Positions 1 to 38,250 of a DNA stretch of 38,250 nt are shown here, piece after piece. The position numbers and the translations under genes are program-made. The notes under the pieces were generated by a model. It did no database searches. It had not been told where the DNA came from and saw only the letters and a list, made by a program, of their open reading frames with translations. The stretch lies in IMG/VR virus record IMGVR_UViG_2687453297_000004, one strand, 5' to 3'. Positions within the stretch are counted from its first letter, which is position 1; the number at the start of each line of letters is the position of its first letter. Origin of the DNA: a virus. Lineage: Duplodnaviria; Heunggongvirae; Uroviricota; Caudoviricetes.

Positions 1-390
1 TTACTCTTTTTTCTCCGTATCTACATCGGGTTCATCAGCAAATAGCTTGCCCTGCATCCGATCCAGTTCTTCTTTTCTTACCCGCTTAACCACGCTGTAG
101 ACCCACTGAAGCGAAACACCAAATTTGCGGGCCAGTTCATGGTGGTTACGTCCGTTAAACTCCCTGAAGATTTCCCGGTCGCGCTGACTGACCTTCCATA
201 CCATGCCCATCGGGAAATAAACGTTTTGCCCGCCCCAGACCTGCATCATGCGGTTCGCGACGGCCTGACCAATCTGGTCGGCAATTGCGGGCTCAATATC
301 AATAATCTCGCGAACGGTCTCAGAGGTATGCTGTGCCAGTTCCACCAGGAGTTCCGGCCCTTTACTTCGAAACTGATTCAGGTCGCTCAT
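1..390 (-). CDS. mor: Mor/C-family transcriptional activator (middle operon regulator-like)
   Basis: 129-aa ORF; C-terminal pattern QNVYFPMG...RDREIFREFNGRN..ELARKFGVS..WVYSVVKRVRK matches the conserved HTH region of Mu Mor/C as I recall it; last gene of the leftward early operon, overlapping the upstream GemA-like gene. Confidence 0.75.
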   Translation of the reverse strand: MSDLNQFRSKGPELLVELAQHTSETVREIIDIEPAIADQIGQAVANRMMQVWGGQNVYFPMGMVWKVSQRDREIFREFNGRNHHELARKFGVSLQWVYSVVKRVRKEELDRMQGKLFADEPDVDTEKKE

Positions 391-853
391 GTTTTACTCC
401 CGCAGCTCTGCGCTGCCACTTCTTCAGTTTCTCAATAACACTGCTTGCCTGTTCAGTATTGAGCCAGCGCAGGGCGCTGATGCCCGTTTCCCGCTTGATC
501 CACCGCGCTAATGCATTTTCTGAACGGTCACGAACAATGCCGGCAGCAGCCATTTCAAGCCATAGCGCACGGATTTTCCTGGACTGCGGATGGTTATCCA
601 GCGGTAAACCGGAGCTGGCTTTTCTGGCAGGCTTAACGCGAAAGCCTTTCCTTTTCATGGATTCCAGCACGCAGTTTAGTTGTGTGGTATCCATTCCTTT
701 GGTTGAGGCTTTACCGGTCAGCCCCTGTAACATCTGGCGGTAGCTGTCTTCATCCATACCCAGTTCATTACGGGCAATATGAATGAGCTGGATAAGACGT
801 TGTTTAGTCATCATCGTTGCTCCTTCTGCCTGCATCACCGATATAATCGACAT
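362..853 (-). CDS. GemA-like early regulatory protein
   Basis: 163-aa ORF immediately upstream of mor in the early operon, the position GemA occupies in Mu; family assignment from remembered similarity only. Confidence 0.5.
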   Translation of the reverse strand: MSIISVMQAEGATMMTKQRLIQLIHIARNELGMDEDSYRQMLQGLTGKASTKGMDTTQLNCVLESMKRKGFRVKPARKASSGLPLDNHPQSRKIRALWLEMAAAGIVRDRSENALARWIKRETGISALRWLNTEQASSVIEKLKKWQRRAAGVKHERPESVSK

Positions 854-1019
854 ATAAAGGAAGTGCCACAGGCCAGCACAGGAACATCACCGACCAGCTA
901 ATCCAGTAACCGGCACCACTGTAACGTGAATAAAACCCTGAACGGCGGTGCAGTTCAGCAGTACACCAACCGACAAAACAATACCAGAACAGGGCACATA
1001 CAACAGATTCAGCCGTCAT
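804..1019 (-). CDS. Small hydrophobic (membrane) protein, unknown function
   Basis: About 72 aa from the internal ATG at 1017-1019; hydrophobic and aromatic-rich (CALFWYCFVGWC, WISWSVMFLCWPVALPLY); the longer 123-aa version would overlap the upstream ORF extensively. Confidence 0.35.
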   Translation of the reverse strand: MTAESVVCALFWYCFVGWCTAELHRRSGFYSRYSGAGYWISWSVMFLCWPVALPLYVDYIGDAGRRSNDDD

Positions 1020-1239
1020 TCTGAATATCCCCCCAACTGATATGAATATTACGGGCAGCAATGACAGGGTCTTTATTCCACCATGCACCTGACATGTATT
1101 TTTCAACCTGTTCGCGTCCGGCAATAACACCAATTGTGATCCCCGGCCTGACGTTCTTAAAAAAGGCGCGGGCAAAAAGGTATCTGGCAGATATTCGGCA
1201 GGCTTTTAATTTCCGGCTGTTACCTGATAACGTAATCAT
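1009..1239 (-). CDS. Hypothetical early protein
   Basis: 76-aa ORF whose start overlaps the stop of the upstream gene (1236..1919) in a compact operon arrangement. Confidence 0.35.
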   Translation of the reverse strand: MITLSGNSRKLKACRISARYLFARAFFKNVRPGITIGVIAGREQVEKYMSGAWWNKDPVIAARNIHISWGDIQNDG

Positions 1240-1919
1240 CTGGCCTCCAGTTTCTGCTGTTCCCGCCCACTGACCGGTCGGTGCAGTCTGACGTTCTGCC
1301 CTTCTCGAAACCCCGCATAGCGCGAGGCGTCGCCATTGCGACTTCTTCCCGGTTTACGCGCCCTGGTGGTTTGCGTCTGCGGGTATTTATGTTCCAGCCA
1401 CTGCTGCATCAGTTCACGTTCGTCATCGGTCAAGGCGAAGGACTGTATTTCACTGATAACGGCCAGCACCCAGCCTTCAGCAAACTGGTCTCCACGGCTG
1501 GTGCGGGTGGCGGTTTTTATTCTTTTGTTCTGTGCACTGATATACTGCTGACGCGCCTTTTTCAGCTGACGGGCCAGCACTTCCCAGGTGTACGCGGCCA
1601 GTGCGGCCCGTTCCCGGTTGCCGTAGAACCCCACACCCGGATATGTGCCGGGGTGAATGATGGAGTTAACACCAAATGCCTCGCGGATGATGTTCATCAG
1701 GCCCAGCATGTAGCGCGGCGGACGGAGGCTGCCTGTCGGCCAGTAGTGACTGATGGTTTCATCAATATCACTCATGGCGATGTCGGAATGTGTGATGCCG
1801 TGAACATCCATCAGTTTACGGGCGCGGCGCAGTGCCAGAGCGGCCTCGTGAGGGTTGCCGGATGCGGCCAGCGCCAGCAACTTTTTCAGTTTCTCAATGT
1901 GTTTATCCTGGTCTGTCAT
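1236..1919 (-). CDS. Early protein with DUF2786-like N-terminal motif
   Basis: 227 aa; N-terminus IEKLKKLLALAASGNPHEAALALRRARKLMDVHGIT resembles the DUF2786 signature found in Mu-like early regions; start overlaps the upstream stop. Confidence 0.5.
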   Translation of the reverse strand: MTDQDKHIEKLKKLLALAASGNPHEAALALRRARKLMDVHGITHSDIAMSDIDETISHYWPTGSLRPPRYMLGLMNIIREAFGVNSIIHPGTYPGVGFYGNRERAALAAYTWEVLARQLKKARQQYISAQNKRIKTATRTSRGDQFAEGWVLAVISEIQSFALTDDERELMQQWLEHKYPQTQTTRARKPGRSRNGDASRYAGFREGQNVRLHRPVSGREQQKLEAR

Positions 1920-2221
1920 TGTTCAGTATCTCCGGTGTACATGACGCCCAGCCGTGCGGCAAGGCGTTCCAGTTTTTTCTGTTTGTGGAAGTCAATCAGC
2001 CGGTCCATCCCCTGAAGGCGCAGCTGCTCTGTCATGATTTCCACGTCTGCCAGCTCTGCCGCGAGGTCACTTTCGCTGCCCTGTCCGTTCAGGTTGCGGG
2101 CGGCACTGGCCGCCAGTTCAGCGGCCTCTTCTGTCAGTTTCAGGGCCTGTGCATCCGGACCGAAACGCTGCAGGGCCAGACGGTAGAGGGCGGTGCGGGT
2201 GAGTTCGGTGTTCCGTGTCAT
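1916..2221 (-). CDS. Hypothetical early protein
   Basis: 101-aa ORF, co-oriented and tightly packed within the early operon. Confidence 0.4.
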   Translation of the reverse strand: MTRNTELTRTALYRLALQRFGPDAQALKLTEEAAELAASAARNLNGQGSESDLAAELADVEIMTEQLRLQGMDRLIDFHKQKKLERLAARLGVMYTGDTEQ

Positions 2222-2230
2222 GCCGCGCCC

Positions 2231-2503
2231 TCAGTGTTTCCGGTCGACGGTGATGTTCAGGCCGCCTTCTGCAGTGGTTTCCACCCGGTACGGCACCTCG
2301 TGCTCTGCCGTGTGGGTGAGTGTGTTCATCAGTACCTGCAGGGCAGCCGCCTTTCCGTTGGTTGCCACAATGGCCTGAGCGGCCATGCTGATTAACGCCG
2401 TCAGGACGTGCTTCACATCGGTGAGGTCGCGGCATTCACACTCGTTGACATAGTGTTCAACAAGGGTTCGGGTGCGCTGTCGTGCTTCCTGTGGGGTAAT
2501 CAT
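2231..2503 (-). CDS. Hypothetical early protein
   Basis: 90-aa ORF; start overlaps the stop of the upstream zinc-ribbon ORF. Confidence 0.4.
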   Translation of the reverse strand: MITPQEARQRTRTLVEHYVNECECRDLTDVKHVLTALISMAAQAIVATNGKAAALQVLMNTLTHTAEHEVPYRVETTAEGGLNITVDRKH

Positions 2504-2694
2504 TGCGCGTCCTCCCTGTCAGGGCGGGAGAATTCCATGACGGGCACGTCCGCCGAAAAATGCTGGCTGCAGTACGGACAGACCAGGGTGACGCGTACCG
2601 CAGGGATGTGGTATTTACCGGACATCACGGCGATGGCGCTGTGAAAACGCAGGGCTGTTATATCCCTCTCGCACTGAATACATTTAAATATCAT
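2500..2694 (-). CDS. Small zinc-ribbon protein
   Basis: 64 aa with two CxxC pairs (CIQCERD ... CPYCSQHF); strong SD (AGAGGAGAA) upstream of the ATG on the minus strand. Confidence 0.45.
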   Translation of the reverse strand: MIFKCIQCERDITALRFHSAIAVMSGKYHIPAVRVTLVCPYCSQHFSADVPVMEFSRPDREDAQ

Positions 2695-2791
2695 AATTTA
2701 ATTCTCCTCTGTTTCCGGCGTGCAGAAGCCCACGGCGCTGACGCCGGAATAAAAAAGAAAATGTTTTTATTAAATAATTAACGTGGTGTGT

Positions 2792-3322
2792 TTACTGCAC
2801 ATCCTGCTCAAAAGGAATTATTGAAAAATCCTCAATGTCGCTTTTAATGGAAATACCGGGAATATTTTTCACGGCCTCTTTTTCATTCAGGATAGCGTCT
2901 TTATTTATTTCCTCTTTTACACGAATAAAGCGCTCAAGCCCCAGACGTCTCAGTAATTCAATAACATTATCCGCCCCACGGATACTGACTGATGGCGGAC
3001 GGTTTCGCCACTGCACCTCGCCGGTGGTGAGGTTAGCGAACTTCACCTTCCCGTTGCCGGTCAGTTCATCACGGTGCGCCTCACACCATGTCTGGATACC
3101 GGACTGCAGTTCGGCCATGCGTTTTTTCAGGCTCTCGGTGAGCGGGGCATAACGTGCAGTGATGTCGCCAATGGTGTCATTCATTTCTGTTTCAGCCCTG
3201 ACCAGTTCACGTTGCGCGTCACCAAGCAGTCTGATTCCCTCAATGACCTCTTCGCGTGTCCCCGGCACCCAGAGTGCTGCTGCGGCTTTGATACGTTTTG
3301 CCCCTTTTGTACTTTTTGCCAT
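2792..3322 (-). CDS. gam: Gam-like host-nuclease inhibitor / DNA-end binding protein
   Basis: 176 aa, similar in size and early-region position to Mu Gam; strong SD (AGGAGGAG) before the ATG. Confidence 0.65.
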   Translation of the reverse strand: MAKSTKGAKRIKAAAALWVPGTREEVIEGIRLLGDAQRELVRAETEMNDTIGDITARYAPLTESLKKRMAELQSGIQTWCEAHRDELTGNGKVKFANLTTGEVQWRNRPPSVSIRGADNVIELLRRLGLERFIRVKEEINKDAILNEKEAVKNIPGISIKSDIEDFSIIPFEQDVQ

Positions 3323-3349
3323 ATTTTATGACTCCTCCTGTTGTGCTGA

Positions 3350-3619
3350 TTACCACAAAGATTCCGGCCACACGACGCGACAGCCGTGCAGTTCGAAAAC
3401 GCCCTGACGGAAATGTCCCCTGTGGTCATGACCGGTATACAGATAACAGGCCTTTCCCTGCTCAAGCATGCGCATGCAATGCGCACTCCGGGAAACGCGG
3501 ATGACAGGTTTGTTACCCCTGATGGTGATGCTTTGTACATCCGTGTTCGTCGCCTTAAGCGCCATAATGGCTGACTGCACTTTGCTGATTTGCTGGTTGA
3601 TACCTGTGGTGGATTTCAT
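3350..3619 (-). CDS. Hypothetical early protein
   Basis: 89-aa ORF directly downstream of the MuB-like gene with a plausible SD. Confidence 0.4.
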   Translation of the reverse strand: MKSTTGINQQISKVQSAIMALKATNTDVQSITIRGNKPVIRVSRSAHCMRMLEQGKACYLYTGHDHRGHFRQGVFELHGCRVVWPESLW

Positions 3620-3621
3620 TA

Positions 3622-4827
3622 TTAAACCCCTTTGACAACGTCAGCGTTGACCTGTGGAACCCCGATTTCAGCGGCCAGATTCATGGCGGCTATTACCAGG
3701 TTACTGACGGCCAGCGGATACAGCAGGCTGACCATATTTTTACGATGACTTCCCGGATTGCTCAGGCGGGCACGTATGGCATCCACTGCGCTGGCGTCCA
3801 TAATGTCCGTCAGTTGTTTACCGGCCCGTTGCAGTTTGAACGTCAGAAACTCTTCAAGGTTATTGTCCAGAGGCAGAAGTTCGACCACCTCACAGCGCTG
3901 AACGACTTCACGGACTTCCATATTGCGTTCAGACAGTTTTGTCGCCAGTTCCGGCTGGCCAATCAGCACGATGGACAGCAGTTTTTTGAAACCGGACTCC
4001 AGCTCAAAAAAGCGTTTGAGGTGTTTCAGTGTCGGAATGGGCAGACTGTGGGCCTCCTCAATCACCAGAACGTGGCTGAACCCCGCCTGGCTGCTGTCTT
4101 TCAGGACGCGATGCAACTGGCGAAAGCGGGCGTCCTGACTGCGTCTGATGCTTTCCAGTGGTGCGATGGTACTGATAATGGCTTCGGCAATCGCTGCTGC
4201 CTTCAGGGTTTTCCCTTTCACATCGTTGTCTTCCATAGCGATGATGTATGGCTCGATAACAATTACCGGCGCATTCTCGCGGTTGATACGTTCAGTCAGG
4301 TCGCGGCGCAGCGTGGATTTACCCGCACCGGACTCACCGATGACGGCCATAAATCCACCATGACGGGCTGTCTGGTACAGCGCCTCACGCACATAGCGGA
4401 TGTCCGGGGTGGTGAACACATCATCAGAACCCTGCATGGCTTCGTCGGCGAACGGGTCACGGAAAAGACCAAACGCTTTTTTGGTTGCTGGAAATAACAC
4501 CTGTTTTTTGAGTAACATATTCTCTTCCTCACTGAGGCTCGTTTTATCTGTGGTACCCGCTGTACGGGGCGTGGCCGCGACCTGTACAGCATCAAAACTC
4601 TTCGTTGTATCAATCCCCTGACTTTCCAGCCAGGACGCAAGACGCCGGCGCACTTCTCCGGGGCGGGTGCGGGGCCACGCGTTATGATTCACAATCTGGG
4701 CCAGCGTGGCCTCAGAAACATCGACAGCTCTCGCCACCACCGCCTGTGAGATACGGGCCTCTTTCAGTTGCTGCTTCAGTACCAGCATGTTTTCCTCCTC
4801 AGTTGCCGTTAACAATGCTGATAACAC
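3622..4827 (-). CDS. MuB-like AAA+ transposition ATPase (target DNA activator)
   Basis: 401 aa; Walker A GESGAGKST; N-terminal HTH-like segment; lies immediately downstream of and overlapping the transposase gene, as B follows A in Mu. Confidence 0.75.
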   Translation of the reverse strand: MLSALLTATEEENMLVLKQQLKEARISQAVVARAVDVSEATLAQIVNHNAWPRTRPGEVRRRLASWLESQGIDTTKSFDAVQVAATPRTAGTTDKTSLSEEENMLLKKQVLFPATKKAFGLFRDPFADEAMQGSDDVFTTPDIRYVREALYQTARHGGFMAVIGESGAGKSTLRRDLTERINRENAPVIVIEPYIIAMEDNDVKGKTLKAAAIAEAIISTIAPLESIRRSQDARFRQLHRVLKDSSQAGFSHVLVIEEAHSLPIPTLKHLKRFFELESGFKKLLSIVLIGQPELATKLSERNMEVREVVQRCEVVELLPLDNNLEEFLTFKLQRAGKQLTDIMDASAVDAIRARLSNPGSHRKNMVSLLYPLAVSNLVIAAMNLAAEIGVPQVNADVVKGV

Positions 4828-6568
4828 TGCTGCGGGCCGGCGTGGTCAGCGTGGCCATGACTTCATCCAGTGCGGCTTCCGGTACGCCGTCCGGGTACTG
4901 TGCCGTTAACTGGCGGTAATGTTCCGGCGTCCAGGTAAGGCCGTCGGCGCTGAACTTATCGCGCAGGGCTTTCGCGGCCTCCACATGAGTCATGGGACGT
5001 TGTTCAGTGCGCGGCCCGCGTACGTCAGAGGCCTGACCGCGCTTCGGCATATAGGCCGGAAGTGTGGCGTCATCAATATGTTTATACGGGTCAAGCCGCC
5101 CGCCGAACGGCAGCGCCTTCGCCTTGCGTGCGGCAGCTGCATCTGTGGCGTTGTCTGTACCGGTGACCAGTGCTTCAGTTTCTTTTGCCGCCGTCTGCGC
5201 CGGTGTTTCCGGCAGGGCTTTGTAACTTTCGCCAAATACCGCCGCGCCTTCAGCAAAGCCAAACTCGTTCTTTCTGACCTCTTCGACCAGGAAGAACGTC
5301 TCGTGGCCGTCCTCACCGGTCAGAACCACCTGTGCCACATCGCTGCGCCACGGGTTACGGGTAATCATCAGTTTTTCACCGACCAGTACGCCCGGTACCG
5401 TTGATACGTCAAATTCAGTGCCCCGGAACGAGACACGAAGTTTTGGCGTGACTTTGCGGAGTTCTGGCGCCGCCACAGCCAGTTCACGACATACCTCAAC
5501 GGAAGGCGCTTTTTTCAGCTGCTCAGCAGTAATCTTCAGCCAGATATCCGTGCGGGTTTTACCGTGGCGGCTGTGAACAGCCGTGGCGTTAAAGTGGCTG
5601 CGCCATTTCGCGGCCAGCGCGTTGAGTTCTTCCAGACTGTGAACCGGCCGGAACTTCAGACCCGGCTCCAGCTTGCGTTCGATAATGTCTCGCGCCTTTT
5701 CCACCTGTCCGGTGGCGCGGGCGTTATGCGGCTTGTGCGCTATCAGGTCAATGCCCAGTGAGCGGCACATGTTTTTCGTCATACCCGCGGTGTTTGCCGA
5801 GCCGGGGTCGAGATAGAGTATTTTTGGCACGCCGTGCAGCACGTCTGCGCCGCCACGCTCCTGCATGGCGTTGATAAGCACAGAACACAGGTTCTCACCG
5901 GATTCCGCACCCGTCACATACTCAACGTAAATCCAGCCGCTGGCATGGTCGGTAATCTCATAACTCCACACGCGGTCACTGGCGATACGGGCAAGGTTAG
6001 CGGGCTTGTTCTTGTAGAATTTCGCGCTGTCCATCACCTGCAGCCCTTTGTGTCCATTGCTCAAGTAGTAAAGCGTGCAGAGCGAGGCATCAATCTGCCA
6101 GACATGATTGGGATGCAGACTGGCCACTTCGGTATGCGGCGCAGGGGCATCCAGTTGTTCCGGGTGCAGGCCATAGTTACGCAGGGCACGGCTGATGGCA
6201 TCTTCGGACAACGGGAAAAACTCACCGGTGGTTTCATCTGTTCTGCCTGCGGAGATAAAGCCGTTAGCCCGCAGGGTTTCCACTGCATCCGCGATGGAAT
6301 AGAGACGCTTACCGTTCTTGCGGGTGGCCTCACGCAGTGTGGCAGATATCAGCGCGGCTTCGTCGCGGGTCAGGGCGCTGCGCCCGGCATCGGCGCGTTT
6401 TTTGCGTTTATCAGTCACAGAGACCTCCTTCAGCCTGCGCAGCAGAGTGGCGCGGGACATGCCAAGTTCAGCACAGGCAGCGTCGTATATTGCACCGCGT
6501 TTACCATGCCCCGCGTCACGTGCCGCGCGGGCGACATAAACCAGTCGTTCAGTCAGGGCAGCATTCAT
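4799..6568 (-). CDS. DDE transposase (Mu/rve integrase-core type)
   Basis: 589 aa; N-terminal HTH region; candidate DDE residues in HVWQIDAS, LYLDPGS and GQVEKA; position between the Ner-like and MuB-like genes. Confidence 0.85.
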   Translation of the reverse strand: MNAALTERLVYVARAARDAGHGKRGAIYDAACAELGMSRATLLRRLKEVSVTDKRKKRADAGRSALTRDEAALISATLREATRKNGKRLYSIADAVETLRANGFISAGRTDETTGEFFPLSEDAISRALRNYGLHPEQLDAPAPHTEVASLHPNHVWQIDASLCTLYYLSNGHKGLQVMDSAKFYKNKPANLARIASDRVWSYEITDHASGWIYVEYVTGAESGENLCSVLINAMQERGGADVLHGVPKILYLDPGSANTAGMTKNMCRSLGIDLIAHKPHNARATGQVEKARDIIERKLEPGLKFRPVHSLEELNALAAKWRSHFNATAVHSRHGKTRTDIWLKITAEQLKKAPSVEVCRELAVAAPELRKVTPKLRVSFRGTEFDVSTVPGVLVGEKLMITRNPWRSDVAQVVLTGEDGHETFFLVEEVRKNEFGFAEGAAVFGESYKALPETPAQTAAKETEALVTGTDNATDAAAARKAKALPFGGRLDPYKHIDDATLPAYMPKRGQASDVRGPRTEQRPMTHVEAAKALRDKFSADGLTWTPEHYRQLTAQYPDGVPEAALDEVMATLTTPARSSVISIVNGN

Positions 6569-6571
6569 TGG

Positions 6572-7483
6572 TTATGCCTCCAGCCCGTTAATCTGTGGCG
6601 TCGGCTCAGTCAGCCATGAAGGCGCTGCATTGCCTGTTGGCTCGTCCGGCAGGTCAAATGTGGAGCGCAGGCTACGCGCTGTGCTTTCCAGTTGACAGAC
6701 CAGGCCTGCCATGAAGTCTCTGGGGGTATCAATCATGTTTTCAGCACAATATGCGCACAGTGTCTCAAAAGCGCTGGACAGTCGGACGGCGATAGCAGAT
6801 TCCGCCTCAACCGCTAATGCTGTCACTTCCGCCCGCAGCTTCTTAACCTCCTCATCAGGCTCAGGCGGCTGAATACGGGATTTCTTTTCCAGTCTGGTAG
6901 AGAGAGAATCAATTTTTTCATTTTTATCGGCGAGTACGCGCTGTTGTGCTGCGTTGGTTTCGCGCGCTTCGCGCAGGGCCTGGCGAAGTTCGCGTACTGA
7001 CATGCGATCAACGTCGTCAAGCGTCAGGCCGGCAACAGTGCCACCATCAGCCAGTTCGGCAAGGTTTTCATCGTCTTCCGTCATTAACTCGAATAATTTG
7101 GCTTTTCCTAAAAGCGCAAACGTCTGCGCTTTTGACTCAAGTTGTGGTGATAAATATTTTATTGATGCCTGCATCATTACCTGTGCAGTACGCTTTGACA
7201 TTGATAATTCAGACTCGACAATATTTATGAAATCACCATGTGGTTCATTTTCTTTCAGTATTATCAGTCGTTTACCTGCCTCTAGCATGGCCTCAGCACT
7301 TTGTGCCATATAAAAGCGTGCTTCGTGAACAATGCGATCTCGTTCATAAGGCAGACCATCGCCGAACTGCTGCATGATCTCCACGCGGTGTTGTGCCATG
7401 GTATTAAGACTGATGTTGAGATCATCAGACAGCGGCACCTCAGCATTCAGATCAGTGGACATTGGTGATTTGGTACGTCCCAT
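6572..7483 (-). CDS. Hypothetical early protein (acidic, coiled-coil-rich)
   Basis: 303-aa ORF directly upstream of the transposase in the same operon; no motif recognised. Confidence 0.45.
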   Translation of the reverse strand: MGRTKSPMSTDLNAEVPLSDDLNISLNTMAQHRVEIMQQFGDGLPYERDRIVHEARFYMAQSAEAMLEAGKRLIILKENEPHGDFINIVESELSMSKRTAQVMMQASIKYLSPQLESKAQTFALLGKAKLFELMTEDDENLAELADGGTVAGLTLDDVDRMSVRELRQALREARETNAAQQRVLADKNEKIDSLSTRLEKKSRIQPPEPDEEVKKLRAEVTALAVEAESAIAVRLSSAFETLCAYCAENMIDTPRDFMAGLVCQLESTARSLRSTFDLPDEPTGNAAPSWLTEPTPQINGLEA

Positions 7484-7493
7484 TGATTACTCC

Positions 7494-7802
7494 TTATAAA
7501 CGACTACCTGAAATGACACGTTGGTTGATTTCGTTAATACGATCCTGCGCTCGTGCCATCTCGTTACTGTGAGCCATGGCGATCTGCAGTAACTGGATGC
7601 CCGGTGCAAAACGTCCATTCTCCAGTTTCAGGGCCAGCCCTTCTTCAATGAGGGTGTTGAGTGCCCGATTAATGTTTGCTGGTGACTCGTGCAGTGCTGC
7701 CGCCAGTTCACCGTTGGAGATACCGTTCAGAGCGTGGCCACGTAACGCCTTAAGAACACGCAAAATACGGGTACCTGCGCTTGATGTATTTGGTTTATTC
7801 AT
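7494..7802 (-). CDS. Putative winged-helix DNA-binding protein
   Basis: 102 aa; HTH-like segment ISNGELAAALHESPANINRALNTLIEEGLA; second gene of the early operon. Confidence 0.45.
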   Translation of the reverse strand: MNKPNTSSAGTRILRVLKALRGHALNGISNGELAAALHESPANINRALNTLIEEGLALKLENGRFAPGIQLLQIAMAHSNEMARAQDRINEINQRVISGSRL

Positions 7803-8023
7803 GACACCTCCTTAAGGATACCGGGGGTAACTTCTTTACCTATTGCAACCGATAGATCTCGCAAAATCCGATAAGTCAAACGACCACGTGGTAGTTCACT
7901 TTTACCAGCCCAGCGACTGACTGCCTGTGTGACTGTTCGTGGCTCATAGCCTGCGTTAAGCGCGAACTGGCGCAAGCTACTGCCTCGTTCAACTAGTCGT
8001 GCCCGAACTTGTTGTTTATTCAT
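7799..8023 (-). CDS. Ner/Nlp-like HTH early regulator
   Basis: 74 aa; first gene of the leftward early operon, divergent from the repressor; pattern SLRQFALNAGYEPRTVTQAVSRW resembles Ner/Nlp DNA-binding proteins. Confidence 0.5.
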   Translation of the reverse strand: MNKQQVRARLVERGSSLRQFALNAGYEPRTVTQAVSRWAGKSELPRGRLTYRILRDLSVAIGKEVTPGILKEVS

Positions 8024-8096
8024 ATGCGGATAGTTCCAGTTGGGTTATCATGTACTCAATATGAATAAATGTACTTATTCAAAATAAATAAATCAA
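8024..8096. promoter_or_regulatory. Divergent early/repressor promoter-operator region
   Basis: 73-bp AT-rich spacer between divergent ner-like and repressor genes; inverted repeat TGAATAA-N6-TTATTCA (8062..8081) and two direct ATGTACT copies (8050..8056, 8069..8075). Confidence 0.4.
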
Positions 8097-8528
8097 GTGG
8101 AATTACGCAAAATGAATAACAAAGATGTTAACGCTGTGCTTTCCCGGTTAATGTCACTATTCCAAGCAGAGAATGATAGTGAGTTGGCAAGAGCGCTTAA
8201 CGTCAATAGGCAGACACTTGCAAGTTGGAGGAAGCGTGATTCTGTGCCTTATGCAATTTGCATAAACATCGCAGAAGAAAAGGGGGTTTCTTTAGATTGG
8301 TTGCTAACAGGTAGAAAACAAGGTTTATCAAAAGAAGTAGACGTAACTCCGACGCAAGTGCAGTTTAGCCAAGCTGACCTTACTATGCTTGAGCTTTTAA
8401 AGCAGCTAGACCCCGAGGTTCGTAACGATCTTCTGCGAGGCGCTGCGGAAAAACAGCGAGTGATCGAGATGGAAAAACAACTGAAGGAATTATCCGCAAC
8501 GATTGAGCGGTTAAAAAATGTGGGTTAA
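8097..8528 (+). CDS. CI-type phage repressor (HTH)
   Basis: 143 aa (start could be GTG 8097 or ATG 8112, no obvious SD, possibly leaderless); LARALNVNRQTLASWRKRDSVPYAICINIAEEKGVSLDWLLTG matches the phage CI repressor HTH signature; divergent from the early operon. Confidence 0.7.
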   Translation: MELRKMNNKDVNAVLSRLMSLFQAENDSELARALNVNRQTLASWRKRDSVPYAICINIAEEKGVSLDWLLTGRKQGLSKEVDVTPTQVQFSQADLTMLELLKQLDPEVRNDLLRGAAEKQRVIEMEKQLKELSATIERLKNVG

Positions 8529-8650: not shown

Positions 8651-9544
8651 ATGAGTGGTGATGTGAGAAATTATCGTATTGAGTTTCATCAGCTATCGTT
8701 TAAGGCCACAGATCAGCTGGCAAATCTCGGAGATGCTTTTCAATCTGTAATTGATAAACAGAGCCCTTCCTCTTCAAACCATGAGGGTTTTACTAGAGAA
8801 ATTTGGGGGTTGAAAAAACGCGCGGATGGTTCTTTTAGTGGAGAGTTGAGAAAATTTCGCAACTCGAACATTCCGGATAAAGGTGCACCAGGGAAACAGT
8901 CTACCCCTATTCCACTTGCCAAGGATGAAGGGATCATTGAGCGCAATTTCTTTGTATTCTATCCTCGAATCAATGTTATAGGTTGGCACTATAATCATAT
9001 GGCTTGTGGTATAAGCCGTTTTAGTGCATTTCTTTCAACTATCTTTGGTTCAAAGGTTAAGCCCGCACCTTTGCTGGAAAAAGATGCAATCGCTAGGCTT
9101 ATGAGAGGAGATGTCAAAATGAAAAAAATCCAGTTGACGATTCCTCGCCCCCGTAATCCTGAGTTTTACCCTGATACTGATTTCAGTCAAAAGACACTAC
9201 AACTGCTTGGTGATGCAGGTGCCGATACAATGCAAATTGTAATGGGGATTAATACTCGCCGTGGCGATAGTGATGGTAGGCTTAAGCAGAATATAAAATT
9301 TGCTATGCAAGAGTTAGTCGAGTTTGGGGCGAAAAAGGCTGTAATTGATGTGTTCGATGCTGATGGTGTTGTCCATCCTGTGGATTTGATTGCCGAGCGT
9401 ATTTCGTCCTATCAATCGGTAGTTACTGACGCTCGTTTCCCTCCAGCCGAAACCATGTACCGTCTAATCGATACTGCGTATGCTGAAAACCGGGAGAGTA
9501 TCAATGCATATATTGGAGAAGATGAACTCGGCCCTATTGCTTAG
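8651..9544 (+). CDS. Hypothetical 297-aa soluble protein; candidate RexA-like exclusion component
   Basis: SD AAGGA 9 nt upstream of the ATG; AT-rich composition compared with flanking prophage DNA; directly downstream of and co-oriented with the repressor; followed by an overlapping 4-TM protein gene. No motif recognised. Confidence 0.6.
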   Translation: MSGDVRNYRIEFHQLSFKATDQLANLGDAFQSVIDKQSPSSSNHEGFTREIWGLKKRADGSFSGELRKFRNSNIPDKGAPGKQSTPIPLAKDEGIIERNFFVFYPRINVIGWHYNHMACGISRFSAFLSTIFGSKVKPAPLLEKDAIARLMRGDVKMKKIQLTIPRPRNPEFYPDTDFSQKTLQLLGDAGADTMQIVMGINTRRGDSDGRLKQNIKFAMQELVEFGAKKAVIDVFDADGVVHPVDLIAERISSYQSVVTDARFPPAETMYRLIDTAYAENRESINAYIGEDELGPIA

Positions 9545-9941
9545 TTTATTGATTGGATGTGGGATTGGTTTTCTCTACTGGTTCAAGTTGCCCCATATGC
9601 CAGTAGCCGCAATCCCAAACTTCATGACTACATTGTCCAGTGTCTTTGCAACGTTGTTAGGTTTTATTATTACAGCAATTGCACTACTTGCATCATTGCT
9701 TGATAAACCGTTACTTAAAAACATGCAAAAAACCGGACATTACAAGCGTCTGATGACCGATGCATTCTACACTTGCTTAGTTTTGCTAGTGTTGGTGTTG
9801 ACATGTTTGATTGGGTTGATGCTGCAAAGTAAGCATCAAGAGATTGTAGCCGCTATCCTCATTGGGCTTGTTGTTATGTCTATGTTGTGTTTATTACAAA
9901 CAGGTAGGCGATTATTCAATATAATCAAAGTGATATCATAA
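9522..9941 (+). CDS. 139-aa four-TM membrane protein; candidate RexB-like partner
   Basis: Internal ATG at 9522 with GGAG upstream, overlapping the end of the preceding gene; four hydrophobic helices (SALLLSLLIGCGIGFLYWF, LSSVFATLLGFIITAIALLASLL, FYTCLVLLVLVLTCLIGLML, IVAAILIGLVVMSMLCLL). Confidence 0.55.
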   Translation: MNSALLLSLLIGCGIGFLYWFKLPHMPVAAIPNFMTTLSSVFATLLGFIITAIALLASLLDKPLLKNMQKTGHYKRLMTDAFYTCLVLLVLVLTCLIGLMLQSKHQEIVAAILIGLVVMSMLCLLQTGRRLFNIIKVIS

Positions 9942-9993: not shown

Positions 9994-10761
9994 CTACTCT
10001 AAATTACTTACAATAAGTTCGCGCCGTAGTGTTCCCTTTCCTGCAAGACTGTAGTTGACCTTCACACAGTGAATGTTCAGACCGTTAAAAACCTGCCGCA
10101 TTTCCGGGATATCGTTGACCGATATAATCATCTTTCCTCTGATGCAACGGGCCAGCTCTGCCAACCGCGAGTAGTTCCCTTCAGGAAAATCCACACCATA
10201 GCCTTCCGTACCCAGGTACGGTGGGTCGCAGTAGAACAGCGTGTGCGGACGGTCATAACGCTCAATGCACTGTTGCCAGTCCATGTGTTCTATCACCGTT
10301 CTGGAAAGTCGCAGGTGTGCCGCTGAGAGCTCTTCCTCAATACGCAGCAGGTTGAAGCGTGGCGGGGATGTGGTGGAGGTGCCGAAACTATGCTCTGCCA
10401 CCTTGCCACCAAACGCCTGCTTCTGGAGGTAGTAGAACCGTGCCGCACGCTGGATATCCGTCAGTGTTTCTTCCGGGGTGATCTGCAGCCATTTGTAGAT
10501 CTGACGGCTGACCAGCGCCCATTTGAACTGGCGGACAAATTCTTCCAGGTGATGCTTTACCACCCGGTACAGATTCACCAGTTCACCGTTGATATCATTG
10601 ATGACTTCGATCTTGCCGGGTGTCTTAAGAAAATAGAGCGCTGCTGCCCCACAAAACGGCTCCACATAACATTCATGCGCCGGAAACAGCGGCAGAATGT
10701 GTTTTGCAAGGCGGCGTTTGCCACCAATCCACGGCACGATGGGTAATGTCTGCATTTTCAT
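9994..10761 (-). CDS. Orphan DNA N6-adenine methyltransferase (Dam-like)
   Basis: Motif I-like PWIGGKRR and motif IV DPPY (FYCDPPYLGTEGYG); start taken at the internal ATG 10761 (MKMQTLPIVPWIGGK), although the ORF is open to 10851; no adjacent restriction endonuclease gene seen. Confidence 0.8.
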   Translation of the reverse strand: MKMQTLPIVPWIGGKRRLAKHILPLFPAHECYVEPFCGAAALYFLKTPGKIEVINDINGELVNLYRVVKHHLEEFVRQFKWALVSRQIYKWLQITPEETLTDIQRAARFYYLQKQAFGGKVAEHSFGTSTTSPPRFNLLRIEEELSAAHLRLSRTVIEHMDWQQCIERYDRPHTLFYCDPPYLGTEGYGVDFPEGNYSRLAELARCIRGKMIISVNDIPEMRQVFNGLNIHCVKVNYSLAGKGTLRRELIVSNLE

Positions 10762-10865
10762 AATCTGTAAGCCTTTTACAATTATTAAAAAATATGGCAG
10801 TCTGGTCAGGTCTCGCGAGACTGACTGAACCTTGGTCGGCTCACAGCGCATTCCTGTGGGGCGAT

Positions 10866-37132: not shown

Positions 37133-37606
37133 TCACGCCGCCCTCACGATATAGTTAAACGCGATATTGCGGGGGCGGGTTATGTTAAAGAATGCTCCGT
37201 TTAATTCGGCTTTTGCGCGACTGTTTGTTCCACCCAGCACTGCGTACCACAAATAATCGCTACGGTAATTCCCCGCAAACACCTTATCGCCGCCATAGTC
37301 AATATTATTTCCGTTACTCATGTACGAGATATCAAGCGAAGAATCGTTATCGTCATGACCGCCGACCAGTGTACCTTTCTGCCATGAAAGCAACTTACGC
37401 CCCTCGTCAATCTTGCGCCCGTCGTCCCATCCACGGATAAACTCACCGCGTAAATCGGGAAGACGGAGGGTCGGGTAGACTCTGGCCAGAACAGGATATT
37501 GTTCTTTGGTGAACGTAGCTCCGTTGCACTGTAACCAGCCTGCTGGCGGTGTGGCGGTGGGCCACGGAACAGGTACACCAACGGGCAGCGCCGAGCCTTC
37601 CCCCAA
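37133..37606 (-). CDS. Alternative tail fiber C-terminal cassette 3 (inverted, no independent start)
   Basis: Minus-strand ORF encoding the same linker followed by a third distinct distal domain ending PRNIAFNYIVRAA; the first 190 bp or so are nearly identical to 35511..35700 in inverted orientation. Confidence 0.6.
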   Translation of the reverse strand: MGEGSALPVGVPVPWPTATPPAGWLQCNGATFTKEQYPVLARVYPTLRLPDLRGEFIRGWDDGRKIDEGRKLLSWQKGTLVGGHDDNDSSLDISYMSNGNNIDYGGDKVFAGNYRSDYLWYAVLGGTNSRAKAELNGAFFNITRPRNIAFNYIVRAA

Positions 37607-37623
37607 ACCAACGTTTATCTCTC
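37598..37623 (-). other. Candidate crossover site c (inverted relative to sites a and b)
   Basis: Reverse complement reads AGATAAACG TT GGTTTGGGGGAA, at the boundary of the inverted homology block and 55 bp upstream of the invertase gene. Confidence 0.45.
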
Positions 37624-37677
37624 AAATCCTCCCCACATTATCTCAGTACTTTAACCACTCAAAAGGGAGTATTTTTA

Positions 37678-38250
37678 ATGCTGATTGGCTACATACGTGT
37701 GTCAACAAATGACCAAAACACAGATTTGCAACGCAATGCATTAATGTGCGCAGGATGTGAACAGATTTTTGAGGACAAAATGAGCGGAACCAAGTCGGAA
37801 CGACCAGGCCTGAAACGCGCTTTAAAGTGCCTTAAAAGAGGGGATACATTGGTGGTCTGGAAGCTGGATCGGTTGGGTAGAAGAATGAAACACCTCATTG
37901 CTCTCACAGAAGAGCTACGCGCAAAAGGTGTCAATTTTCGCAGTCTGACGGATTCAATCGATACCAGCACTCCGATGGGAAGGTTCTTTTTTCATATGAT
38001 GGGTGCACTGGCAGAAATGGAGCGTGAACTGATAGTTGAGCGCACGCTGGCTGGACTGGCTGCTGCGCGAGCACAAGGAAGAGTTGGAGGACGTCGCCCG
38101 AAACTGACGAAGGAGCAGCATGAGCAGATCGCAAGATTGCTCCAGAAAGGGTATGACAGAAAGCGGCTGGCAATTATCTATGATATTGGACTGTCAACGA
38201 TCTACCGCTATCACCCTGTTGGGACTGTCATAACGCAACCTGAAATGTAA
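37678..38250 (+). CDS. gin: Serine recombinase, DNA invertase (Gin/Hin/Cin/Pin family)
   Basis: 190 aa; N-terminus MLIGYIRVSTNDQNTDLQ with catalytic-serine context; near-colinear with Mu Gin as I recall it; SD AAGGGAG upstream. Confidence 0.9.
   Translation: MLIGYIRVSTNDQNTDLQRNALMCAGCEQIFEDKMSGTKSERPGLKRALKCLKRGDTLVVWKLDRLGRRMKHLIALTEELRAKGVNFRSLTDSIDTSTPMGRFFFHMMGALAEMERELIVERTLAGLAAARAQGRVGGRRPKLTKEQHEQIARLLQKGYDRKRLAIIYDIGLSTIYRYHPVGTVITQPEM

Follow-up and report, generated by a model that had tools for sequence, protein, structure and literature searches.

Positions 804 to 3619 of a 38,250 nucleotide (nt) stretch of viral DNA (IMG/VR record IMGVR_UViG_2687453297_000004, Caudoviricetes; the whole stretch is referred to below as the window) carry eight small genes between a MuB-like gene and mor, and we consider it very probable that this block represents the semi-essential early (SEE) region of a transposable prophage of the BcepMu type in Escherichia coli, forming part of one early operon, with roles that can be proposed by homology and with a mosaic mode of evolution. 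The initial annotation, made from the sequence alone, had suggested an analogue of the Mu semi-essential region, and this suggestion was borne out by the position of the block, the packing of its genes on a single strand, the presence of gam and of a remote homologue of kil, and a mosaic interior in a comparison of 52 loci. The first 7 kb of the window share 97% DNA identity with Escherichia phage PhiKM (PQ738613), a Bcepmuvirus, and approximately 88% identity with BcepMu-like sequences of Klebsiella and E. coli. Of 5426 complete E. coli genomes, 639 contain the block itself (800-3620), 618 of them over 80% or more of its length, and its location is nearly always chromosomal. With this prophage type in about 12% of complete E. 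coli genomes, its early genes would be expressed in a large share of strains upon induction.

To our knowledge, the functions of the semi-essential genes of transposable phages have remained largely unknown since the 1980s. The block is ordinary and widespread, belongs to a known phage type and had already been annotated, and current understanding is not overturned by it; what is new here are the corrected gene boundaries, the evidence that all eight genes are real, the link of one of them to a Kil superfamily, and a ranking of the genes from widespread to rare.

Gene content and proposed operon structure of the block

In the RefSeq annotation (PGAP) of an identical E. coli prophage exactly eight coding sequences (CDS) are placed across 804-3619, all on the minus strand. 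They are listed here in the direction of transcription, together with the one sizeable gap between them, their PHROG and Pfam matches (E values) and their ratios of non-synonymous to synonymous substitution (dN/dS) against diverged relatives.

3350-3619, minus strand: Kil-like protein of 89 amino acids (aa); 'HI_1482 family' in PGAP, phrog_2041 (function unknown in PHROGs); dN/dS approximately 0.08
2792-3322, minus strand: Gam, a Ku-like DNA-end-binding inhibitor of host nucleases, 176 aa; PF07352 (1.9e-40), phrog_491 (6.7e-73); dN/dS 0.13
2695-2791, minus strand: intergenic gap of 97 nt, the only sizeable one of the block
2500-2694, minus strand: zinc-ribbon protein (Zn64), 64 aa, with C5xxC8...C40xxC43; phrog_3401 (1.2e-40); dN/dS 0.2-0.3
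2231-2503, minus strand: helical protein of 90 aa (p90); phrog_3691 (3.3e-54)
1916-2221, minus strand: probable MazG-like (all-alpha) nucleoside triphosphate (NTP) pyrophosphohydrolase, short and single-domain, 101 aa; phrog_2245, same name in PGAP; dN/dS 0.12-0.22
1236-1919, minus strand: basic protein of 227 aa (isoelectric point, pI, 10.1) with DUF2786 (PF10979, 4.4e-11) and DUF7168 (PF23771, 5.5e-26); phrog_421; dN/dS 0.12-0.15
1009-1239, minus strand: basic protein of 76 aa (p76), PGAP CDS, overlapping its neighbours by 4 and 11 nt; phrog_3681 (1.9e-53); dN/dS 0.12-0.29
804-1019, minus strand: Trp/Cys-rich protein of 71 aa with two hydrophobic segments (TM71), PGAP CDS, probably a small membrane protein; phrog_6436 (2e-15)

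The proposed arrangement of an eight-gene block between a MuB-like gene and mor agrees with the eight PGAP CDS and with Pfam matches for both flanks (AAA_22, 4e-20; PF08765, 1.3e-43). Nine genes separate B from mor, eight of them within 804-3619, since gemA lies almost wholly outside this interval; its identity had been given correctly (PF06252, 1.4e-40), its place within the block had not. The eight genes of the first ORF (open reading frame) list were likewise real, except that the ORF at 804-1175 proved to be two genes and that 1009-1239 had been missed. Reading this 123-aa, TTG-started ORF as a single gene was rejected in favour of the overlapping genes 804-1019 and 1009-1239: over 1020-1175 the ratio of non-synonymous to synonymous differences (pN/pS) was 0.15-0.27 in the frame of 1009-1239 versus 1.2-3.9 in the 123-aa frame, and the true start of TM71 is the ATG at 1019, where its homologues begin, and not the TTG at 1175. 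A 105-aa ORF at 2118-2435 was also discarded as spurious. The label of unassigned short proteins had been too pessimistic, as all eight proteins fall into PHROG families, one of them being Kil-like and one MazG-like. Gam is the sole member of the eight in the PHROGs 'host takeover' category, and none of the eight was matched by NCBIfam or by the PADLOC defence models.

Purifying selection is evident in all eight ORFs, with dN/dS of 0.08-0.34 against diverged relatives (0.05-0.08 for the flanking B and mor). This bears directly on the alternative that several short ORFs of the block arose by chance in a GC-rich operon and are not genes, for which it can be said that alternative ORFs of 60-240 aa are abundant on both strands of the region and that the GenBank record of PhiKM has a plus-strand ORF opposite the zinc-ribbon gene. 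The dN/dS values are however far below 1 for all eight ORFs while the synonymous sites of the relatives are mostly saturated, every product has a PHROG family, the frame test favours the annotated frames, and start codons, Shine-Dalgarno sites and start/stop overlaps are consistent with genes; we therefore regard the alternative as extremely improbable and, as far as sequence analysis allows, as refuted. In the PhiKM record a plus-strand hypothetical gene (5281-5502, equivalent to approximately 2500-2720 of the window) is annotated and the zinc-ribbon gene is omitted, which is probably a mis-annotation.

The genes are packed closely: start and stop overlap as ATGA at three junctions, two further pairs of genes overlap by 11 and 8 nt, and the remaining junctions are spaced by 2, 9 and 27 nt and, once, by 97 nt. 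A Shine-Dalgarno sequence is recognisable for six of the eight starts; none is clear before the DUF2786 gene or the Kil-like gene, both of which have starts that abut or overlap the preceding stop. In a consensus scan, promoter-like and terminator-like sites were not more frequent than in shuffled sequences. These compact junctions, start/stop overlaps and Shine-Dalgarno sites, the lack of site enrichment, and the presence upstream of a repressor and a regulator all argue for a single operon. The eight genes would form the distal part of this leftward early operon, which would start at an early promoter beside the CI-type repressor at approximately 7.8-8.1 kb, and their expression would follow only upon induction or infection, alongside that of the transposition proteins. 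The other genes of the early arm and the divergent repressor are as follows.

8097-8528, divergently oriented: CI-type repressor
7494-7802, minus strand: helix-turn-helix (HTH) regulator
4799-6568, minus strand: transposase, rve-type (Tn552/rve)
3622-4788, minus strand: MuB-like B ATPase (ExeA/AAA_22 type), the upstream flank; 'ExeA family protein' in PGAP, 59% identical to BcepMu gp08
362-811 (/853), minus strand: GemA (Mu gp16 family), the downstream flank
1-390, minus strand: Mor, activator of the middle operon, the last gene of the early arm

Exchange of interior cassettes among phage lineages

The conservation of the block was analysed across 52 loci, 48 of which were fetched through the B protein and complemented by the window, PhiKM, KP12 and BcepMu; all same-strand ORFs were clustered, and the genes of the compared loci were chosen by family-size-weighted picking. 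The frame is nearly constant, with B in 52, Mor in 51 and GemA in 46 of the loci. The interior is not: the zinc ribbon, its commonest gene, was found in 29 loci, the Kil-like gene in 28, DUF3164 in 25, DUF2786 in 22, the MazG-like gene in 20, the membrane protein in 17, Gam in 13, p76 in six and p90 in just three. B and Mor share 93-95% identity with their counterparts in KP12-like relatives at a synonymous divergence (dS) of approximately 0.4-0.5, whereas the interior genes are 51-69% identical and their dS is mostly above 1 and partly saturated. Identity and dS values so far apart from those of B and Mor indicate that the interior has been exchanged and is not merely evolving fast. Interior cassettes are thus swapped between phage lineages, in part at conserved intergenic junctions. 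SEE regions have been described as long, poorly conserved and encoding small uncharacterised proteins (PMC8705779), and the mosaic behaviour found here is that described for the semi-essential regions of transposable phages.

The junction between the DUF2786 and MazG-like genes (approximately 1916-1919) is an insertion hot spot within E. coli. In PhiKM the insert consists of one gene of 71 aa (phrog_3958; PhiKM 4416-4631), and in strain MS20655 (2617-3208) a phrog_3958 gene is accompanied by a gene of 127 aa (phrog_18739). The widespread interior genes are those for the Kil-like protein, the zinc ribbon, DUF2786, the MazG-like protein and either Gam or DUF3164, with p90, p76 and the inserts at the DUF2786/MazG-like junction as rare cargo, and the matrix of loci and genes provides a rational order of priority for screening in the laboratory. 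It should be noted that the KP12 record (OM835952, 'Klebsiella phage KP12 clone KP12_2') is filed under Vequintavirinae, yet its transposase, B, Kil-like, DUF3164, GemA and Mor genes make up a BcepMu-like transposable-phage early arm, as if a prophage had been co-induced or the contig mislabelled.

Gam and DUF3164 occupy the same slot and co-occur in none of the 52 loci. Homology between the two was considered and dropped, as their hhalign comparison found no similarity (probability 0.75%), and DUF3164 may stand in functionally for Gam without being homologous to it. In the literature we found nothing functional on DUF3164, DUF2786 or DUF7168, and no paper that mentions the RefSeq accessions.

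The gap that follows gam has its own conserved architecture, which reads, in order, an AT-rich part, a U-run, a conserved GC-rich hairpin-forming sequence CCGGCGUCAGCGCCGUGGGCUUCUGCACGCCGG, AAACAG and the Shine-Dalgarno sequence of the next gene. Its predicted RNA fold has an energy of -31.3 kcal/mol (z -3.55). About 45 nt of it are nearly identical in relatives which have DUF3164 and not Gam upstream and a Zn64 of approximately 51% identity downstream, and the element recurs in the related loci L003, L006-L016, L021, L022, L025, L026, L043, L047 and L051. Mu has the same architecture after gam (6326-6423) with another stem sequence. Covariation in the gap is thin: the short hairpin is 98% paired with changes that are wobble-only, and the long stem has one compensatory pair which probably reflects a single event. 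A search of Rfam with the element gave no match. Three identities were tried and rejected: an intrinsic terminator, since on the sense strand the U-run precedes the hairpin and the antisense strand has an A-run; a transposase-binding site, since the element is unlike the ATGGGAAGAA repeats at the prophage end; and a micro-ORF, since there is no start codon and the substitutions would be non-synonymous in the only open frame. The element possibly acts in the processing or stability of the mRNA or in controlling translation of the distal genes, or it may mark a recombination junction.

Candidate functions of the block proteins

The product of 3350-3619, whose start lies 2 nt past the stop of B, is concluded from profile comparison to be a remote homologue of Mu Kil. 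A homologue search among 1.84 billion representatives gave 197 clusters at E<=1e-3, of which the best 150 are nearly all approximately 80-125 aa long. The family profile was then searched against some 1160 ORFs of the related loci and all early proteins of Mu and BcepMu; it matched Mu Kil over its full length (residues 1-74; 23.3 bits, E 3.6e-6) and BcepMu gp07 (19.1 bits, E 7.3e-5), the next non-family match having an E of 0.048. For 20000 shuffled sequences the top scores were 15.4 bits (Kil) and 8.4 bits (gp07). Members of the family in turn match PHROGs 2743/6381, 'Kil protein for bacterial septation inhibition', over the full length (P0227, 2.7e-7; P0199, 7.4e-6; P0230, 4.5e-5), and for the protein of the window itself a Kil family is the second-best of 38880 PHROGs (E 0.023). 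An hhalign comparison of the Enterobacterales alignment with Mu Kil and one diverged phage homologue gave an E of 9e-5. Common to the Kil-like protein and Mu Kil are an N-terminal helix, an R-P-x-(I/L) strand and a C-terminal G-C-(R/Q)-(I/V)-(I/V)-W, and in all three elements the gene is the first past B: kil in Mu (4315, with B ending at 4296), gp07 in BcepMu, and 3350-3619 in the window. Neither the Mu Kil family nor the HI_1482/phrog_2041 family has a Pfam entry.

Mu Kil kills its host and changes the shape of the cell. The Kil-like protein, which is small and basic, would by homology act like Mu Kil to stop host division or alter cell shape, and would be toxic if expressed alone. Through the Kil superfamily link, Mu kil, BcepMu gp07, phrog_2041 and the 'HI_1482 family' share a single prediction, that of toxicity with a division or shape phenotype.

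Gam, which had been proposed earlier as a candidate, is 61% identical to Mu Gam and matches PF07352 with 138.7 bits (cut-off 28.3), residues 23-169 covering model positions 1-148/149. From this homology it is predicted to bind linear DNA ends and to shield them from RecBCD.

The product of 1916-2221 probably belongs to the MazG-like superfamily. It matches phrog_2245, 'NTP pyrophosphohydrolase', with an E of 3.8e-34 over the C-terminal half of the profile, and a metal-binding motif, read from sequence and not from a structure, is present as E31-E32-x-x-E35...E56-x-x-D59, in which E31, E35, E56 and D59 are invariant in the family alignment (A6) and E32 is a Lys in one member. Across the family, Pfam PRA-PH matches five of six members (best E 0.0013) and MazG three of six (best E 0.018); these matches are consistent but stay below the gathering score, so that the protein is filed as a probable and not as a certified member. 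The enzyme would hydrolyse a nucleotide, which on the evidence of homology may be an alarmone, a nucleotide made by a defence system or a non-canonical (d)NTP. Atd1, a MazG-like enzyme of Pectobacterium phage PcCB7V, has been reported to deplete (p)ppGpp and to blunt a TIR-based defence (bioRxiv 10.1101/2022.06.09.495361); as it too is a short phage-encoded single-domain MazG-like enzyme, it is a possible functional precedent for 1916-2221, to be taken as a lead only.

The remaining five proteins, i.e., the zinc ribbon, p90, p76, the DUF2786/DUF7168 protein and the small membrane protein, would be accessory factors. A CxxC zinc ribbon, a DUF2786-like protein and a small membrane protein had been named in the initial annotation, and each of the three was recovered. 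In the zinc-ribbon alignment C5, C8, C40 and C43, and thus both CxxC motifs, are conserved in every true member (three rows of the cluster, two chimeric neighbour ORFs and one fusion, are not true members), and no Pfam family was above cut-off for this protein. The p90 protein is 40% identical to an Apirhabdus copy (dN/dS 0.34) and has no sequence relative in the PDB. Both Pfam models of the DUF2786/DUF7168 protein are matched in N-to-C order and above the gathering score (43.0 bits versus 23.9 for DUF2786, 91.3 versus 25.5 for DUF7168). For the membrane protein, the maximum Kyte-Doolittle value over 19 residues, 1.51, is borderline.

The structure prediction that had been recommended delivered two confident AlphaFold2 models but no informative PDB match. 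The Kil-like protein was modelled with a predicted local distance difference test score (pLDDT) of 91 as an alpha-beta-beta-alpha-beta-beta-beta fold, for which a Foldseek search of the PDB gave a weak likeness to the N-terminal alpha/beta domain of NuoC of complex I (E approximately 0.008, TM approximately 0.5); a relationship to NuoC was dismissed as generic fold similarity. For the DUF2786/DUF7168 protein (pLDDT 85.9, 26 homologues) nothing in the PDB was significant by Foldseek (best E 0.18), and a sequence search of the PDB was also without a meaningful match; the weak KH-like and LAGLIDADG likenesses (E >= 0.18) were rejected as evidence. In BFVD, by comparison, Foldseek found 30 predicted viral structures at E<1e-3, all of them uncharacterised, in phages of Sinorhizobium, Serratia, Delftia, Mycobacterium, Gordonia, Bacillus and others. 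In another transposable element, a relative of 35% identity is encoded between DUF3164 and RdgC/GemA/Mor, again within a semi-essential region.

That uncharacterised members of the block may be new host-interaction factors had been proposed from the sequence alone, and is a reasonable expectation. Our own version of it is tentative: at least one unassigned member may be a new host-takeover or anti-defence factor, and the hairpin of the gap may be an undescribed control point which partitions the early operon. The best candidates for such a factor are the DUF2786/DUF7168 protein, the rare p90 and the fast-diverging membrane protein, the first of these because its confident fold has no PDB relative and recurs in distant semi-essential regions and in virulent phages.

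The chief alternative, to which we give a similarly modest chance, is that the uncharacterised members mainly serve the DNA transactions of the phage (transposition, replication, nucleotide-pool hygiene) and are not directed at host targets or defences; the DUF2786/DUF7168 protein could then possibly bind nucleic acids, the zinc ribbon DNA or RNA, and the MazG-like protein could be a house-cleaning enzyme. The DUF2786/DUF7168 fold does recur in many unrelated virulent and temperate phages as well as in distant semi-essential regions, and with so many virulent phages among its carriers a general phage function fits at least as well as a host-specific one. This protein is also basic, the only PDB likenesses it has, weak as they are, are to KH-type nucleic-acid-binding domains, the genes are placed between the transposition genes and Gam/GemA, and the zinc ribbon is so common in the interior. 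The KH-like matches are however not significant, and each of these genes is absent from many related and presumably functional prophages, so that none of them would be a core replication function. The counterpart region of Mu is, moreover, dispensable for growth.

A lesser alternative is that the prophage expresses some members to the benefit of the lysogen, as lysogenic-conversion or exclusion genes, with 804-1019 acting for example in superinfection exclusion. The protein encoded there is small, hydrophobic and Trp/Cys-rich, and its allele in PhiKM is only 40% identical amid neighbours of 95-98% identity, a pattern typical of genes in conflict with other phages; the gem genes of Mu, at this same end of the operon, have been reported to escape repression. 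Yet 804-1019 shares 11 nt with the gene upstream of it and 8 nt with gemA, there is no promoter-like site on its strand and PADLOC has no match for it, and we consider this alternative unlikely.

The reading preferred here, of an SEE region within one early operon and with a Kil-like and a MazG-like member, also has observations that weigh against it. The consensus scan found no minus-strand promoter site in 1-8200, and the gap element could indicate an operon divided through processing, attenuation or an internal start, and not a single simple unit. As for the Kil link, the protein of the window gave no significant match to Mu Kil by direct hidden Markov model (HMM) or BLAST comparison, the hhalign probability is just 59%, a profile from the close Enterobacterales set alone scores 8.7 bits against Mu Kil, and the toxicity of Kil may not be conserved in the 3350-3619 protein. 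The MazG-like protein of the window is below the Pfam gathering score (PRA-PH, 14.9 bits versus 21.3) and has no sequence relative in the PDB in either single-sequence or profile searches, and neither of the two structure models gave a functional clue.

Genetic setting and comparison with Mu, BcepMu and PhiKM

The minus-strand order of the early arm is HTH regulator, DUF3102 protein, transposase, B, the block, GemA and Mor. In NZ_CP015074, which carries the identical prophage, the junction with the host lies approximately 160 bp past mor, which shows the early arm to be directed leftward to the prophage end, as in BcepMu and unlike Mu. The window is truncated within the prophage at both ends, position 1 being the stop codon of mor and an ORF at 37549-38250 running off the right edge. 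Adjoining the CI repressor, the segment 8651-9941 (plus strand) has a GC content of approximately 41%, versus approximately 55% elsewhere, and contains ORFs of 297 and 153 aa without a Pfam match; a Dam-type D12 methyltransferase is encoded at 9994-10851 on the opposite strand to these ORFs. The position of 8651-9941 is typical of cargo or defence genes expressed from a prophage.

When compared with the SEE region of Mu (kil, gp6-9, gam, gp11-15, gemA, mor), the block has the same place between B and gemA-mor, the same strand logic and the same run of small genes; a kil-type gene stands directly past B, gam is 61% identical, and a hairpin with AAACAG follows gam in both. Only Kil (remotely), Gam, GemA and Mor are held in common, and the family profiles of the other six genes gave no match among all early proteins of Mu and BcepMu. 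The early arm of the window points outward to the prophage end whereas that of Mu points inward, and the transposase of the window is of the Tn552/rve type and its B of the ExeA type, which also differs from Mu.

The likeness to BcepMu (genes 01-08) is closer in organisation, with Mor-GemA at the left end of a leftward arm that also carries B and the transposase; identity is 59% for B and 54% for Mor, and gp07, directly past B, belongs to the same Kil-like superfamily. BcepMu differs in having DUF3164 (gp05) in place of the Gam of the window, an HU-like protein, and a longer pyrophosphatase (gp06) that is undetected by the MazG-like profile, and it is without the zinc ribbon, DUF2786, p90, p76 and TM71.

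The closest systems are PhiKM and the RefSeq E. coli prophages. PhiKM differs from the window by the 71-aa insert at the DUF2786/MazG-like junction and by its diverged allele of the membrane protein; otherwise the block is shared with these elements at 97-100% DNA identity, with the same genes in the same order.

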